Below are positions 24,922 through 62,630 of a DNA stretch of 64,000 nucleotides, in pieces. The notes below the pieces were generated by a model that saw only the letters and a program-made list of their open reading frames with translations, was not told where the DNA came from and ran no database searches. Position 1 is the stretch's first letter, and each line of letters begins with the position of its first letter. Source of the stretch: a virus (lineage: Duplodnaviria; Caudoviricetes). Both the position numbers and the translations under genes were made by a program. The DNA is taken from positions 9,350 through 73,349 of the IMG/VR virus record IMGVR_UViG_3300028534_000024. One strand, given 5' to 3'.

Positions 24922-24951
24922 ATTATATCATATATAGTGTATATTTGTCAA
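24922..24951 (-). promoter_or_regulatory. Sigma70-type promoter TTGACA-N18-TATAAT with extended -10 TG
   Basis: Minus strand TTGACA aatatacactatatatga TATAAT. Confidence 0.85.
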
Positions 24952-24956
24952 GTATA

Positions 24957-25275
24957 CTATATAAATAAACCTATATAGTTATCTTATAAAGTAAGGACTA
25001 TCGTCCTATATATTGGGAACCTTTCGGTTCAGACTGATATTATACCATAAAAGTTATGTTTTGTCAAGTCTTTTTTGAAATTTATATAATATTTTTCAGG
25101 AAACTTTTGTAACAAAAGAAAATTGAAATTAATTTATATTATTATATAAAGTTTCCTAACAAGATATACCATTTAAAGCAACAGAATGGTACTTTAAAAG
25201 GCTTTTCTTTTAGTTTAGGTATCATAGGCTACCTAAGATGTAAAACCTTTCATATTTGCTTTTAAATTATTTATC
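24957..25275 (-). repeat. Repeat family A, copy 1 (promoter -35 at 25062-67, -10 at 25039-44, two hairpins)
   Basis: 294 bp shared with 35155-35448; homology to copy 3 extends to 25275. Confidence 0.97.
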
Positions 25276-34619: not shown

Positions 34620-35102
34620 CTATCTTGTAATTTGTAGAAAATCATCTATTAGGTCTGATGCTAATGGATAATTTCTTTTAAATAAAGAAGTAGCATATAT
34701 ATCTGAACATATTATTGTAGTATTACCATTTGCTTTATTTAATTTAATGAGGTTTGATAATACTTTATCTGAATAATTTGTAGAGTTAGCTAATTCTTCA
34801 CCTACATCATAAATATACAATACATTACTTTTAACTGTACCATTTCCACCATCAAAGACAGCCGAGAAGTATTTAGGATAGTCAATACCATATATATCAC
34901 TAGGGCTTTTTGTTTCATCCTCTATAAGCCTATCTAAAATGGCCCCTTTATCTCCATGTAGAAACACTGTCTTATTTCCTTCACTCAATTCTATAGCCAA
35001 CCTATTAAATTTAGCTGGAGAATATAAATGTAAATCCTCCCATTTAGTATCTATAAGCGTCAATGGGATATTTTTTAATTGTAGTACTTGTTTATTATCC
35101 AT
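34620..35102 (-). CDS. Degenerate DnaC/IstB-like ATPase (putative helicase loader)
   Basis: 'VFLHGDKG' eroded Walker A; 'LYIYDVGEE' Walker-B-like; 'TTIICSD'. Confidence 0.45.
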   Translation of the reverse strand: MDNKQVLQLKNIPLTLIDTKWEDLHLYSPAKFNRLAIELSEGNKTVFLHGDKGAILDRLIEDETKSPSDIYGIDYPKYFSAVFDGGNGTVKSNVLYIYDVGEELANSTNYSDKVLSNLIKLNKANGNTTIICSDIYATSLFKRNYPLASDLIDDFLQITR

Positions 35103-35154
35103 TTTCTTCCTTGTATTTATATATTCTATTATATAGGTATAATATCATGAATCT

Positions 35155-35448
35155 CTATATAAATAAACCTATATAGTTATCTTATAAAGTAAGGACTATC
35201 GTCCTATATATTGGGAACCTTTCGGTTCAGACTGATATTATACCATAAAAGTTATGTTTTGTCAAGTCTTTTTTGAAATTTATATAATATTTTTCAGGAA
35301 ACTTTTGTAGCAAAAGAAAATTGAAATTAATTTATATTACTATATAAAGTTTCCTGACAAGATACACCATTTAAAGCAACAGAATGGTACTTTAAAAGGC
35401 TTTTCTTTTAGTTTAGGTATCGTAGGTTATCTAAGATGTAAAACCTTT
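35155..35448 (-). repeat. Repeat family A, copy 2 (-35 at 35260-65, -10 at 35237-42)
   Basis: 294 bp with 7 substitutions versus copy 1 by manual alignment. Confidence 0.97.
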
Positions 35449-35457
35449 TAAATCATC

Positions 35458-35676
35458 TTATACTTCAATATAATATACTTCATCTTTTATTAACTTTTTA
35501 AAATCTTCATATTCATCATAGGTATCATCCATTTGCTCTAACAGATATCCTAAGTTATATCGAGCTGTACCATCTAAGTCATTTACCATTATAGGCGATG
35601 TATTCCGTAGTAAATCTAGTGCTTTCCTAGATAATACTTGATTAATTACTGCTAGTTTTACTATTATGTATTTCAT
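35458..35676 (-). CDS. Hypothetical protein
   Basis: Start coupled to polymerase stop (TAATG). Confidence 0.55.
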   Translation of the reverse strand: MKYIIVKLAVINQVLSRKALDLLRNTSPIMVNDLDGTARYNLGYLLEQMDDTYDEYEDFKKLIKDEVYYIEV

Positions 35677-36582
35677 TATTTATCCTTTTTAAAGTCTTCT
35701 TCTAATTTATTTAAGAAATCTTTTATTTCACCCAAACTTGCATTATTTGCTAAAGTTTCTTGTTGTTTCCATGAAAAACCAAAATCAAGTTCAGCTTTAT
35801 TATGTACTAATTGATCTTCTTTATAGTCTTTTATCATTTCTGATATAACTATTTCGTTAGCTTTTTGTACTATTATAGGATCGTTCTTAACTTGAAGATA
35901 TACAGCATCGTGTATAGTTAAGAATATATACATATTATCCTCTAAGTTTTCATCTTCAATTCTTTTTTGAATCCTATTAATAGCTTTCATCATAAGTTGT
36001 CCTGATAATCCTTGAATTAATGCATTACAATAAGATCTTTCAGCTTTTTCTACTGATATCTGTTCCTCACCTAGTAATTCATGACATCTTATTATTAATC
36101 CATGAGGTGTTCTTCCTACTCCTTTATTATCTCTAGCTTCTTTCAGATACTTGTCATAGTATTTTTGTACACCACTATAAAGTTTGTGGTAATTATCTAC
36201 AATAATCTTAGCCTCATCTAAAGAAATATTTAAAGAATTTGCTACAGAATGTTCAGTTGCTCCGTAAGCAAGTCCAAAAGTTACGGCTTTAGACAACTGT
36301 CTTAAATCTGGAGCTTCTTCTTTAATTATAAAGGATTCCTCAACTGTTATAGTATTACCGTAAGGTAATCCTCTTTCCTTTAATTCATCAGCAAAGTAGC
36401 TGGCTGTATTAAAAGAATGCGAGTCATGTCCTTCAAGGATTACTTTACATTTTGCATCATCTCTTGTTTCTTCCGCACCTACTCTATCCTCCAAAGCATT
36501 AAAATCAGCTCCCGCAAATAGGTAATTATCTTCAGCAATACAAACGTTTTTAATAAGTTTAGCATAGGTTGAACCTGAAGGC
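35676..36582 (-). CDS. Family A DNA polymerase, exon 2
   Basis: Frame reads PSGSTYAKLIK...GADFNALEDRV (motif A), 'RQLSKAVTFGLAYG' (motif B), 'TIHDAV' (motif C). Confidence 0.92.
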
Positions 36583-37453
36583 CAGGGTGTTATACAAGCG
36601 TGTAGTGATATAACAACCTATACTATATTATAAGGTCTATCTATTACTTTATATTTATCTAAAAGATAATTAACATGTAATGCTGCCTCTTTTTCGGTAT
36701 TAAACCGTTTCTGTCCTATAGTTTTATTATTGAGTCTTAGTGATCCTATCCATTTCTGTCTACTCTTATCATAGCTAACATTATGATAGTTTGAGGATTT
36801 ACCAATCTTTAATCCCAAAGTAGGTAAATTATACTCCTTAAGTCCTGTTGTTAAGGCATGTATTTTATTTTCACTGGATGTACACCATTCTAAATTATCT
36901 AGTCTATTATTTAATTTATTCCCATCTTTATGATTGACTTCTAATTGTTCACTATTATCTACTGGATTAAATGTTAACATAACTAATCTATGAACTAAAT
37001 AATTTTTATTCCTAATTGAGACATCTAAATAACCACTATTTAATAAATGTGGTCGTAGGTACGGTACTTGTATCCCTTTAATTCTACCATAAGTTGATAT
37101 TAAATATCTAGTATCAATAGGGCATTCTTTCCATTGTTCAATAATATCCTCCTTTAATTTTTATTTAATTGCTTGTATCACTCACAGTCTCCTATGAGAT
37201 CGGACTATATCTTCACCCTTAAATAAGGGGATCACCACTTCGACGTCACTACTCGTCTACTCCTAAAAGGATAGTCTCTGAACCTTTACCTTATCTCGCA
37301 CTTAGGTACTTGGCTGCTGATTGTCTCTATTATATGTATTTTTAGGGGCCGTTAAGTCATTTCTGCTTAATATCCTAACATATACCTAACAAGATGTTCC
37401 AGCAATTCGATGATTTTACTATATCATATTGCTATGATATGACCCACCATTCT
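36583..37453 (-). ncRNA. Group I intron (IA2-like) in DNA polymerase gene
   Basis: P AAUUGCUGGAA, Q AAUCAGCAG, R GUUCAGAGACUA, S AAGAUAUAGUCC; P1 ACCU/GGGU; junction CT|G restores NLQNL-PSGS; terminal G. Confidence 0.93.
36618..37142 (-). CDS. Intron-encoded HNH homing endonuclease (NUMOD4-like + HNH + AP2-like), probable ATT start
   Basis: Frame open to ATT at 37142, 5 nt after AAGGAGG; 'EQWKE...YLISTYGRI', 'VHRLV', 'VNHKDGNKLNNRLDNLEWCT', 'SSNYHNVSY...WIG'. Confidence 0.85.
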   Translation of the reverse strand: MEQWKECPIDTRYLISTYGRIKGIQVPYLRPHLLNSGYLDVSIRNKNYLVHRLVMLTFNPVDNSEQLEVNHKDGNKLNNRLDNLEWCTSSENKIHALTTGLKEYNLPTLGLKIGKSSNYHNVSYDKSRQKWIGSLRLNNKTIGQKRFNTEKEAALHVNYLLDKYKVIDRPYNIV

Positions 37454-39114
37454 AGGTTTTGTAAGTTTGGATTTGAACTACTAAGTCTTCCAGACACTGT
37501 ACCATGAAGTTTAAAGTCTCCATGTACTCTATATATGCCTTTATCATCTTGAACAGAAAGTTCATCAAATGCTTTTAAGAATGTACCTGCTACTTTAGAC
37601 GCATCAGTTATATCTTGAAGTAGTTTTAATATTCTTAATTTATGTTCGTCTTGTTCCTGTTCCCTATATTGTTTCATGACATCTTTACCTACTGATGGAT
37701 TACCAGTTTTCTTAGATGTTTCAAGAACAGGATAACCTAAAGTATCAATAAGAAGCATCACTTTATGGTTCGTAGAGTTAGGATTAAATTCTACATCAAA
37801 ATCATCCACTGTTTTCTGTTTAACATGTGATGAGTTATATTTAAACATAGCATTATATTTTAAATCAGTTACTACTTCTTTAATCTCATCAAAACTTCTT
37901 AACTCTTCAAGTGACTTTTCTATCAGACTATTAAGTTCCTCTTGTGCTTCTGTAAGTTTCTCTTTATCAATTATAAGTCCTTGATACTTCATCTTAATAA
38001 GAGTCTTAAGGGATGGTTTATAATAATTAGTAAAGATATCTAATTGATCTTCCTCTATTATCTTCTTAGAATACTTATTATACGCTTCAAATGTACCTGT
38101 AACATCATACACATTATATGTACCAACATCTTTAAATGAATACTCTAATAACCTATCCTGTTTGATATTATTATCATATTCTCCATATATATCAAATAGT
38201 TCATCTTTAAGGCCTAAACTGACTCTTTGTAGCCCATTAACACAAAGGTATTTTAGGTGCATTACATCAGTGATATTCCAATTATTAACAATATCATTAA
38301 GTCTTTTTCGTTCATAAACAGAAACATCCATCAAATCCCTTAATATGAATGGAACATCAAATATAGCGTTATACCCTAATTGCTCGCCTTTATACATAAG
38401 ATAGAAATTATATAATTCTTCTCTGATCTCCTCATATTCTGATGAATATTCTGGACAAGTAGCAAAAGCATATCCTTTAGTTGTACTTGTAGCTAACGCA
38501 ACTGTGATAATCCTATCTCTTCCTAAAACTAAACCTGTTGTTTCGATATCCATAGCTAGTTTAGGTTCTTTAATAAGCCTATCAAGTACATCTCTTGTTT
38601 CTTCTAGATTATCTATAAGTTTTACATCAATCTTATCAAGGATATTGACTGTATCTTTATAAGTACCATTAAGTACACTATCTAAACATTCTACTGATTT
38701 ATTTAGCTCAGTTAATTTCTGAGGTTGTGAGAATAACATAAAGAAGTTAAGAACAGGTACTATCTTATATCCATCTAGTTCATTTATACCATCTAAAGCT
38801 TTTCCTAAAGATGCCATAAAGTGTTTTGATCCTGTTGCAAACTTAAAGAAATCTGGGTTGGTGGTTGCAATAGTAAGCACGCCATTATTCTCAGCTATCT
38901 CTTTCAATTCTTTAACATTTTCAGTATAGTGTACTTTTTTATGTTTTCCTGTTTTCGTGTCCAAGCTTAAAGCATAATATAAAACTGATTGTTTATTACT
39001 ATCAGAAAGTTTAGCCTGATAATTAATCATAAGTTTGGTAATATTTGAATGATTCATCAAATTAGGATTACCAACAATTATAACTTTTGGATTGTTTGAT
39101 TTATTAATTAACAT
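37454..39114 (-). CDS. Family A DNA polymerase, exon 1 (N-terminal extra domain + 3'-5' exonuclease)
   Basis: 'AMDIETTGL', 'YNAIFD', 'YNVYDVTGT', 'GTVSGRLSSSNPNLQNL'. Confidence 0.93.
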
Positions 39115-52857: not shown

Positions 52858-52887
52858 ATTATATCATAGTAGATATAAATTTGTCAA
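52858..52887 (-). promoter_or_regulatory. Sigma70-type promoter TTGACA-N18-TATAAT (extended -10)
   Basis: Minus strand TTGACA aatttatatctactatga TATAAT. Confidence 0.85.
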
Positions 52888-52895
52888 GATGTAAG

Positions 52896-53220
52896 GATAA
52901 ATAATTTAAAAGAAAATATGAAAGGTTTTACCCCTAAGGCAACCTATGATACCTAAATGAAAAGAAAAGCCTTTTAAGATACCATTATGTTGCTTTAAAT
53001 GGTATATCTTGTCAGAAAACTTTATATAATAATATAAATTAATTTCAATTTTCTTTTGTTACAAAAGTTTCCTGAAAATACTATATAAATTTCAAGAAAT
53101 TTACATTTTACTCTTGACAAATCTTTAATAGTGTGGTATAATATCAGTCTGAACCGAAAGGTTCCCAATATATAGACCGTAGGTCTTAGCTTATAAGATA
53201 ACTATATAGCTATTTTATAG
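52896..53220 (+). repeat. Repeat family A, copy 3, inverted (-35 at 53114-19, -10 at 53137-42)
   Basis: Reverse complement aligns to copies 1/2 and is identical to copy 4 over 117 bp. Confidence 0.97.
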
Positions 53221-53221
53221 A

Positions 53222-53623
53222 CTATATTTTACCCCATGTTTTATTATACCCATACTTATGTATGATTCTATATACAGATGCTACAGATATATCATAGTCT
53301 TTTGCAAGTTGCCTTGATGATATACCATTTAATATAAATTCCTCAATTATACTTTTATGAAGTACTTTAGGTATTCTTTTACGGATACATTTAAGTTTGT
53401 TATTGTATATTTTAAATTGCTTATGTACATCATATTTATTTACCTCTTCTTGTGTAGCATAGTAGAATTTGTAAAGTCCATCCACCCAAACAATAGGAGC
53501 AACATTATTACATACGCTTATATATTCGTTATCATTACTTACTACTAATATCCCATATCCATTATCGTAGGCTTTTTGTGCTTCCTCTATTGTTAATTCT
53601 TTTCTATTTTTAAAGTTTTTCAT
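53222..53623 (-). CDS. HTH-containing protein
   Basis: C-terminal 'ISSRQLAKDYDISVASVYRII'. Confidence 0.65.
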   Translation of the reverse strand: MKNFKNRKELTIEEAQKAYDNGYGILVVSNDNEYISVCNNVAPIVWVDGLYKFYYATQEEVNKYDVHKQFKIYNNKLKCIRKRIPKVLHKSIIEEFILNGISSRQLAKDYDISVASVYRIIHKYGYNKTWGKI

Positions 53624-59085: not shown

Positions 59086-59730
59086 TCATTCTCCTTTGGT
59101 TTTATTTAATCTGCTTTTTGCAATATTGTAATAGGTCTCATCTATTTCTATTCCCATAAAATTTCTACCTAACTTTAACGCAACTAATCCAGTACTTCCA
59201 CTTCCCATGCAAGTGTCTACTACTAAATCACCATCGTTGGTGTTGTCTATAATAAGCTCTTCTAGTAAAGAGTGTGGCTTTTCCGTAGGGTGAAGTTTAC
59301 TCCTACCAGTTGGGTGTACTAACCAGTTCTTTTTACATTTGCTGTTTAGTTTTCCAGTACCTTTCTTCTTAAACCACACTGCATTTTCTGTAGCACTTAA
59401 ATATACATACTCCCCATTCATAGGCGATGGGTTTGATTTGGCGTAAACAAGCTGTCTAGTTGTCCCTAGCTTCAGTTTTGACTTTTTTGCGAAGAACTTA
59501 TAAATAGTTGAATACTGTTCGTTACCACAGAAGATAACGAATATATCAGCAGAATTGTAAATGTGTTCTTAGAACACATTTATGTCAAATGTTGGTATAT
59601 CTGCTATTCCCTTGTTCAGGTTCCTTAACCCATTACTTTCCCTGTTTACTTTCCCGTAGGGTATATCGGTAAGCAATAACCTACATTTTGGGATATCCAC
59701 CTCAGTACAATCTGCATTAATTAGTTTCAT
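59086..59730 (-). pseudogene. N4/N6 DNA methyltransferase (beta class) interrupted by one in-frame TAA
   Basis: MKLINADC..TDIPYG..FDINVF*EHIYNS..HPTEKP..DTCMGSGSTG..GIE in a single frame; stop at 59569-71. Confidence 0.88.
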
Positions 59731-62476: not shown

Positions 62477-62630
62477 CTATATAAATAAACCTATAAAATA
62501 GCTATATAGTTATCTTATAAGCTAAGACCTACGGTCTATATATTGGGAACCTTTCGGTTCAGACTGATATTATACCACACTATTAAAGATTTGTCAAGAG
62601 TAAAATGCAAAATTCTTAAAATTTTTATAC
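62477..62630 (-). repeat. Repeat family A, copy 4, partial (-35 at 62592-97, -10 at 62569-74)
   Basis: 62491-62607 is the exact reverse complement of 53104-53220. Confidence 0.97.

Follow-up and report, generated by a model that had tools for sequence, protein, structure and literature searches.

Cassette anatomy and genomic setting

In this study, we analysed a promoter cassette that is repeated in a 64,000-nucleotide stretch of phage DNA (the window), which comprises bases 9350-73349 of the 73,349-bp IMG/VR record IMGVR_UViG_3300028534_000024, a record with a completeness of ~56%. Positions below are those of the window unless they are given as genome positions. The window has a G+C content of ~30% and carries plus-strand structural genes, among them those for the major head protein and a tape measure protein of 1714 residues, followed by a long minus-strand block that encodes a family A DNA polymerase (split), a DnaB-like helicase, a primase, a ligase, a ribonucleotide reductase and SbcC-like proteins. 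The source of this DNA is an uncultivated, siphovirus-like phage with a genome of roughly 130 kb. Sequencing runs that contain the phage sequence are labelled as epibiont and hydrothermal vent metagenomes; no RNA run is among those listed as containing it, and the four DNA runs that were examined gave only strain variants and a raised word depth across the cassette. A search for the host by way of the ribonucleotide reductase found no close relative in a genome collection.

The copy of the cassette on which this work is centered, copy 3, lies at 52896-53220 on the plus strand. It opens with a palindrome-rich upstream block of ~200 bp (52896-53113, +), delimited by an alignment of five copies, in which an A/T-rich UP-like tract adjoins the -35 element; the same alignment revealed that the block is common to copies 1, 2 and 3 and is lacking from copy 4. 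Next is a promoter that we refer to as type A (53114-53142, +), composed of TTGACA, 17 nt and TGg-TATAAT, which has 12 of 12 matches as well as an extended -10 element. The discriminator and start region, atcagtct (53143-53150, +), follows, and the promoter geometry would place the start of transcription at ~53149-53150 and thus the first base of hairpin 1 at about +2 to +3 of the predicted transcript. Hairpin 1, GAACC-GAAA-GGTTC (53151-53164, +), has predicted folding energies of -5.5 kcal/mol as RNA and -3.1 as DNA. It is joined by a conserved, single-stranded linker of 9 nt, CCAATATAT (53165-53173, +), to hairpin 2, AGACC-GTA-GGTCT (53174-53186, +), a 5-bp stem whose other allele is AGGAC-GATA-GTCCT. 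The two hairpins and the linker would make up the first ~40 transcribed bases downstream of the promoter. Beyond them is an AT-rich tail (53187-53220, +) that contains CTTATAAG (53190-53197), CTATATAG and CTATTTTATAG, with CTATATA at 53202-53208, and that differs in length and sequence among copies. The repeat ends at 53220, two bases short of the stop codon of a convergent gene. A preliminary description of the sequence at 53151-53210 had reported the two hairpins and the two alleles of hairpin 2 in copies 1-4, and both are exactly as it claimed.

Copies in the record and in related strains

Four occurrences of the hairpin 1 14-mer were counted in the window (25017-, 35215-, 53151+ and 62547-), compared to an expectation of 0.13, and none of 100 shuffles reached four. 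A fifth copy is present in the same record outside the window, and throughout the record the 14-mer is confined to cassettes, all five of which have it downstream of the same perfect promoter. Copy 1 occupies 24955-25067 (-), with its promoter at 25067-25039, hairpin 1 at 25030-25017 and hairpin 2 at 25007-24994. Copy 2 occupies 35153-35265 (-), with the corresponding elements at 35265-35237, 35228-35215 and 35205-35192, and follows the gene for the C-terminal part of the DNA polymerase and a 72-residue open reading frame (ORF). Copy 4 occupies 62491-62607 (-), with its promoter at 62597-62569, hairpin 1 at 62560-62547 and hairpin 2 at 62537-62525. Two of the cassettes are within the replication gene cluster. 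The AGGAC-GATA-GTCCT allele of hairpin 2 is found in copies 1 and 2 and the fifth copy, and AGACC-GTA-GGTCT in copies 3 and 4.

Eight further copies were identified in metagenome contigs of related strains, seven by a metagenome scan in contigs of one sample (L029-L035) and one by a protein-guided look-up in an ENA contig (L045). The flanks of these copies are 72-92% identical to the record, which identifies their sources as related strains. Orthologues were recognized for all five positions (L034 for copy 1, L030 and L035 for copy 2, L033 for copy 3, L032 for copy 4 and L031 for the fifth copy), and the context of L029 is not present in this record. In the orthologues at all five positions hairpin 1 is identical, and the 17-nt promoter spacer retains just 6-17 of its 17 bases. 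Across the 13 copies from the record and the relatives, TTGACA-17-TATAAT is matched at 12 of 12 positions without exception, the TG extension is present in 12 (it is lacking in L034), and hairpin 1, whose stem is invariant, begins 8-9 nt past the -10 element in every copy. The start region has five alleles, always with a length of 8-9 nt, and the linker has two, conforming to (C/A)CAATATAT, although the conservation of the linker is partly due to the method by which copies were found, as the search pattern included it.

On the evidence of our searches, the cassette family is limited to a narrow clade. By promoter scan and covariance model, the cassette was not found in ligase relatives (L009-L028, 25-50% identity) or in polymerase relatives (L046-L048, 52-66% identity). 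No Rfam 15 family reached its gathering score in the window, three cassette loci compared with Rfam at E <= 1 were likewise without a match, and a blastn search of 50,697 phage records with the cassette as query was negative. Exact-pattern leader scans of viral contigs identified no relatives, a scan anchored on the -10 element and the linker with hairpin 1 left free returned one chance match, in coding DNA, and a pattern scan of the genome collection returned nothing.

Pairing in hairpin 2

The pairing of the hairpins was examined in a model-guided alignment of the 13 copies (10 distinct) from this phage and the related strains. Two adjacent pairs of helix 2 are changed on both sides (A-U/G-C and C-G/A-U), 94% of its cells are paired, and its covariation score was reached by none of 500 shuffles, so that the joint change of paired stem positions noted in the preliminary description is borne out. 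When the partner strand was slid by one to three columns as a control, 9-49% of cells were paired, and the same compensation appears on a plain alignment. The two stem alleles have an equal predicted RNA energy (-6.2 kcal/mol), the fixed AGACC/GGTCT stem bears either a GATA or a GTA loop, and G-U pairs are absent from both helices. Because the changes in the stem are compensated, selection for the pairing of hairpin 2 in one strand is supported by these comparisons. There are only two stem alleles, each is present in both lineages, and the copies show concerted evolution, so that the independent compensation events may amount to a single one; a single origin or very few origins, with later spread by gene conversion, is the probable history of the two alleles. 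RNAalifold applied to a MAFFT alignment returned hairpin 1 only, hairpin 2 being misaligned by indels.

Two other helices were considered as candidates and set aside. The preliminary description had proposed an outer pairing of TATATAG with CTATATA around hairpin 2; this helix has no compensated changes, is 87% paired and is broken in four of 11 distinct sequences, including those of relatives. A third hairpin or terminator in the tail was likewise rejected, as the fold shows no significant gain over shuffles (z of -0.8 to -2.1) and the opposite strand folds equally well.

The stem of hairpin 1 never varies and therefore supplies no covariation evidence. Invariance of this kind would be equally expected if the palindromes, chiefly GAACC-N4-GGTTC, were double-stranded DNA operators for a dimeric repressor that shuts off the type A promoters at the switch from early to middle expression. 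The invariance of hairpin 1 and the linker in sequence, beyond what mere pairing would demand, and the restriction of the 14-mer to cassettes are what such an operator would lead one to expect, as is the position just past +1, where a bound protein would block promoter escape; the phage also encodes helix-turn-helix (HTH) proteins, for example at 53222-53623. However, two hairpin 2 alleles with mirrored changes in one genome are unexplained by a single protein that reads both half-sites, and a deletion of 1 nt in the center of hairpin 1 is tolerated (L045 and an X2 contig). We consider an operator function to be improbable.

RNA or DNA hairpins

The hairpins are expected to be transcribed because they begin 8-9 nt past the -10 element of a perfect, extended promoter of the sigma-70 type. 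As RNA and the non-template DNA strand have the same letters, and G-U pairs are absent from the two helices, these two forms of the hairpins are not separable by sequence alone. It had been proposed that the hairpins act in the displaced non-template DNA strand, where they would hold an R-loop or recruit primase or helicase, and the cassettes would then be transcription-activated origins or priming sites. The chemistry invoked for that proposal is sound, since mini-hairpins of d(GCGNAGC) and d(GCGNNAGC) have a very high stability, and the early promoter of N4 includes one (PMC13037366, PMC4496689). In a GC-stem context, C-G-closed GAAA, GATA and GTA loops in DNA melt at 76.5, 71 and 70 degrees C, respectively, compared to 39 degrees C for r(GCGAAAGC), and mini-hairpin motifs are known at the G4 origin, ssiA of RSF1010 and the N4 promoters (PMC13037366). 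Two G-C pairs beside the loop (GC-GC or CC-GG) are described as essential for mini-hairpin DNA (PMC13037366).

When the loops of the 13 copies were compared with the rule for this class (GNA or GNNA closed by C-G), 23 of 26 conformed. The others are the AAA loop of hairpin 1 in L045 (GAACC-AAA-GGTTC), which has the same one-base deletion as an X2 contig from another run (place 35223), and the TATA loops of hairpin 2 in L029 and L045, which are on weakened stems. The statement that all loops are C-G-closed G(N)nA therefore stands for this genome and fails in the relatives; the first G of the loops is lost in relatives, and the last A is invariant. As had been noted for GAUA and GUA, the hairpin 2 loops (GAUA, GUA and, in relatives, UAUA) are not GNRA loops, and the loop of hairpin 1 is one (GAAA) in 12 of 13 copies. 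The rule of two G-C pairs is satisfied by hairpin 1 (CC-GAAA-GG) and by the AGACC allele of hairpin 2 (CC-GTA-GG and CC-GATA-GG), and is broken by an A-T second pair in five of the 13 hairpin 2 copies (copies 1 and 2, the fifth copy, L031 and L045), which have the form AC-GATA-GT or AC-TATA-GT; the AGGAC allele is present in three of the five copies of this genome. The switch between the AGGAC and AGACC alleles thus enters and leaves the DNA mini-hairpin class at a constant predicted RNA energy, which argues against the DNA reading.

The cassette resembles the DNA mini-hairpin class in its G(N)nA loops closed by C-G, both in hairpin 1 and in the CC-G(A)TA-GG allele, and hairpin 1 and the AGACC allele fit the class known at the G4 origin, ssiA and N4 (PMC13037366). 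The resemblance to the N4 promoter does not extend to position or to the polymerase. The N4 hairpin, with a loop of 3 nt, works in the template strand, is centered upstream of the start at -11 and depends on the virion polymerase of 3500 residues (PMC4496689), whereas here the hairpins are downstream of a host-type start, on the RNA-like strand, and most copies have 4-nt loops; the largest ORF listed in the window, which covers 64 of the 73 kb of a ~56%-complete record, is the 1714-residue tape measure gene, compared to ~3500 residues for the giant N4 polymerase.

Other features of the cassette would suit a role of the hairpins in replication. It is independent of orientation, AT-rich on both sides and placed beside a palindrome-rich block, and two copies are in the replication gene cluster. 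Origins of the T4 type likewise combine a promoter with an unwinding element. On the other hand, predictions give both hairpins a higher stability in RNA than in DNA, and folding of the RNA would sequester it from the template and compete with an R-loop. The leader is also AU-rich with no purine excess by eye, a composition that does not favor a persistent R-loop, and a phage with at least five origins, each with a consensus promoter, would be out of the ordinary. Taken with their position, the two-G-C rule and the loops of the relatives, this leaves an identification of the hairpins as DNA mini-hairpins not supported by the sequences, and we regard action in the displaced strand as having little probability.

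Promoter types and the predicted 5' leader

The record contains nine perfect promoters: the five of type A, one at genome position 2000 and three of a second kind, type B, with the form TTGACA-18-TGnTATAAT. All three type B promoters adjoin a type A cassette. One (52858-52887, -), which has a short unstructured leader, is back to back with copy 3; another (24922-24951, -) is downstream of copy 1; and the third, at genome position 8249 (-) and outside the window, is downstream of the fifth copy. The two type B leaders that were read (from 24951 and 52887) are alike, short and unstructured (ac.a.atataaa...aggaNatatATG), and have a ribosome site ~20 nt after the start. The remaining perfect promoter (genome 1972-2000, -), ~7.3 kb before the window, has a 6-bp hairpin, AGATAG...CTATCT, at +1 and is followed by a long stretch devoid of ORFs. 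A hairpin at +1 to +3 is consequently found in six of six long leaders (the five of type A and that at genome 2000), compared to none of the three of type B. Bacterial mRNA is protected from 5'-end-dependent decay by a 5' hairpin or a nearby ribosome site, and the pyrophosphohydrolase RppH needs at least 2-3 unpaired 5' nucleotides (PMC3997798). The distribution of hairpins over long leaders and of ribosome sites over the two type B leaders that were read matches this rule of 5'-end protection.

A scan of viral contigs for TATAAT-N5-10-hairpin 1 identified three contigs, L006, L007 and L008, the last of which was rejected as a relative of the cassette because its match is a terminator-like chance match. 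At L006:9855-9970 (+) and L007:3480-3592 (-), TTTACA-17-TATAAT is followed after 6 nt by an identical GAACCGAAAGGTTC, and both contigs have the hairpin 1 14-mer of this phage. Both are higher-GC phage contigs that are not related to this phage. Their second hairpin covaries between the two contigs (GGGAG/CTCCC versus GGTGG/CCACC) and a ribosome site comes after it, so that, as judged from these sequences, the hairpin region in the two contigs is plainly the 5' untranslated region (5'-UTR) of an mRNA.

The pattern among the promoters and the 5'-UTR of L006 and L007 suggest that hairpin 1 is a protective 5'-terminal stem-loop. The reading that we favor, with a probability of about one half, is that the cassette specifies an RNA 5' leader, in which a terminal hairpin at ~+3 protects early transcripts with long leaders, and that it has been spread and homogenized by recombination. 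In such a mechanism, a host polymerase of the sigma-70 type would initiate 1-3 nt before hairpin 1, and the nascent RNA would fold into a 5'-terminal, C(GAAA)G-capped hairpin of 5 bp and, 9 nt further on, a second 5-bp hairpin. The terminal stem-loop would leave too few unpaired 5' nucleotides for pyrophosphohydrolase and for 5'-end-dependent RNases of the RNase E or RNase J type, with the outcome that early transcripts having long, ribosome-free leaders would be stabilized. Hairpin 2 might reinforce the protection or be read by some factor, and the cassette would be copied, homogenized and used as a crossover point through recombination between copies. The start site, the folding of the RNA in vivo and the stabilizing effect are all inferred.

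The predicted leader would resemble the stabilizing 5' stem-loops of bacterial and phage mRNAs, such as the ompA, papA and aprE leaders (PMC3997798), in having a small stable hairpin at most ~3 nt from the predicted 5' end of a long untranslated leader. As here, the hairpin is absent from leaders of that type where a ribosome site is near the 5' end. The two differ in that end protection of the ompA, papA and aprE type does not require a second conserved hairpin or a conserved linker, both of which are present here, and in that effects on half-life are reviewed for the known 5'-terminal stabilizers, whereas the present case is known from a predicted start and its sequence.

Several considerations weigh against the protective leader. 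The covariation comes from two stem alleles that possibly reflect one event, and palindrome-templated mutation could in principle yield covariation without selection. The invariance of hairpin 1 is partly a result of how the copies were found, and it is expected equally for a protein-binding DNA palindrome. The transcript start is deduced from promoter geometry, and decay of the RNase E or J type is assumed for the host. Furthermore, copy 3 and its orthologue in L033 are oriented against the neighboring genes, and copy 1, the fifth copy and copy 3 each adjoin a second perfect promoter. The inverted copy and the adjacent second promoters indicate that the cassette is not simply the promoter of the next gene, since the neighboring type B promoter might by itself be enough to express the gene that follows.

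The two stem-loops right behind strong promoters that head long co-directional gene blocks would also suit processive antitermination, of a put-like or nut/boxB-like form, by which the leader RNA, by itself or together with a protein of the phage, would modify the polymerase for operons of 10-27 kb. Hairpin 1 and boxB alike are 5-bp stems capped by a GNRA loop, and both nut boxB of lambda and put of HK022 are small nascent-RNA stem-loops just behind early promoters. In contrast to those systems, there is no boxA-like element here, terminators are few and the structures are far smaller than put. Almost no intrinsic terminators are present within the operons, no ORF with an N-like arginine-rich motif was found in the 73 kb, and Rfam gave no match. 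A termination-resistant polymerase that travels antisense from copy 3 would, moreover, be harmful. Antitermination thus appears a doubtful explanation, with a low probability comparable to that of an operator.

If the RNA reading is true, an uncultivated vent phage has a consensus promoter and a 5' cap-like hairpin that are moved together as a cassette, which would help to annotate early regions, would explain mosaicism and would provide a compact natural part that combines a promoter with a stabilizer. The loops fit the RNA and DNA rule sets only partly, which makes the cassette a clean test of RNA versus DNA hairpins.

The inverted copy

The promoter of copy 3 fires into the 3' end of the convergent gene (53222-53623, -), which encodes 133 residues with a C-terminal helix-turn-helix of the HTH_7 type. 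In L033 the inverted arrangement of copy 3 is retained, and the orthologue of the convergent gene has two HTH units. Copy 3 and copy 4 constitute a perfect 117-bp inverted repeat that flanks a 9.3-kb block of small early genes, with the two promoters facing each other. The 133-residue gene was considered as an invertase or serine recombinase for this block and rejected, as it has HTH units only and no recombinase domain.

The conserved inverted copy and the redundant promoters next to cassettes could be accounted for if the cassette had a function of its own in either orientation, through its product or its structure, either as a multi-copy gene for a very abundant RNA of ~50-90 nt that is produced when infection begins or as transcription-activated sites of replication or priming at which the non-template strand would fold into mini-hairpins. 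We consider this general idea to be rather unlikely. Its first form, a self-contained small RNA or attenuator, supposes that each cassette is its own unit making an abundant RNA of ~50-90 nt that would be composed of hairpin 1, hairpin 2, an AU-rich third hairpin and a U-rich tail; read-through would be a by-product, and the RNA would act in trans (as a decoy, sponge or antisense RNA) or its termination would be regulated. The orientation retained in copy 3 and its L033 orthologue is of no use to any gene, the next gene at three loci could be expressed from a type B promoter beside the cassette, the AU-rich hairpin is followed by UUUAUUUAU in six of 13 copies, and hairpin 2 of copies 1 and 2 was flagged as a weak terminator-like site, all of which are compatible with such an RNA. 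It is the 3' end that fails to fit: the tail hairpin has the insignificant scores given above, folds on the other strand too and differs in form among copies, its proximal arm is missing from copies 1 and 2, there is no canonical terminator, and no Rfam family is matched. A small RNA of this kind is accordingly judged unlikely. Should the inverted copy or a DNA mini-hairpin prove functional, the cassette would point to transcription-primed origins beyond the T4 group or to phage small RNAs of a new kind.

Probable recombination between copies

Several features of the cassettes suggest exchange among them. Between copies 1 and 2 there is no difference from the promoter through the tail, and the 117 bp of copy 4 are the exact reverse complement of 53104-53220 in copy 3. 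Copy 3 is chimeric: it resembles copies 1 and 2 over ~200 bp of upstream sequence, in which the final bases of the ligase gene are included, and its promoter and leader match copy 4. In the related strain, the leader of L033 matches that of L030, the orthologue of copy 2, and differs from that of L032, the orthologue of copy 4. Copies 1-4 have in common the start allele atcagtct and the linker allele CCAA, and the fifth copy has the allele of the relatives; alleles follow the genome rather than the position. As judged from these comparisons, the cassette copies evolve in concert, and the mosaic copies, the 117 identical bp, the genome-wise alleles and the differences between strains downstream of the cassette all point to recombination between copies.

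The downstream differences were seen where the cassette follows the gene for the polymerase C-terminal part and the 72-residue ORF (34900-35700 in the window), as three different contexts come after it in the relatives. The sequence downstream in L030 matches this genome, that in L045 has a type B promoter, a 72-residue ORF and a flap nuclease gene, as after copy 1 here, and that in L035 resembles the sequence downstream of copy 4. These differences may represent real recombinants or chimeras of metagenome assembly at the repeat.

This organization is reminiscent of the promoter-early stem-loop (PeSL) cassettes of T4-type phages (Arbiol et al. 2010, PMC2839356; Comeau et al. 2014, PMC4122927). 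Like PeSL, the present cassette is a short module that pairs a strong early promoter of the sigma-70 type with a stem-loop and recurs in the intergenic spaces of the early region. Chimeric copies are present in both, and close relatives with PeSL have different genes at the cassettes, as do the strains compared here if their assemblies are sound. However, the stem-loop of PeSL is a GC-rich terminator before the promoter, whereas the conserved hairpins here are behind the start site, and a terminator scan found no hairpin with a T-run in the upstream blocks of copies 1-3. The present cassette is also larger (~320 bp with the palindromic upstream block) and is found in five or more copies, one of which is inverted. 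The phages with PeSL are of the T4 type, whereas this phage is siphovirus-like and its recombination is deduced from sequence comparison. As the promoter is not preceded by a canonical terminator and transcription is predicted to cover the conserved hairpins, we view the cassette as a probable variant of the PeSL kind rather than a member of it.

Further observations

Palindrome-rich blocks of ~200 bp are present upstream of type A promoters at 25072-25262 (-) and 35270-35450 (-), as well as in copy 3 (52896-53113, +). For the copy 1 block, the predicted fold is far more stable than those of shuffled sequences (z = -3.8). A 15-bp palindrome within the upstream block, CTTTTGyWACAAAAG, is kept in all relatives in surroundings that differ, and is a candidate protein-binding site. 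The downstream block ATATTATACCTATA was considered as a genome-wide promoter motif and rejected, there being eight matches versus 7.2 expected.

The family A DNA polymerase is encoded in two ORFs (35676-36494, - and 37432-39114, -), which are separated by a gap of ~0.9 kb that includes a 120-residue ORF (36618-36980). In L045 the corresponding gap contains HNH_3 and DUF723 genes, which suggests that the split is due to an insertion of the homing-endonuclease or intron type. A 111-residue ORF at 59086-59421 (-) matches the N6_N4 DNA methylase family in its C-terminal part only, and this methylase gene looks to be split or truncated.

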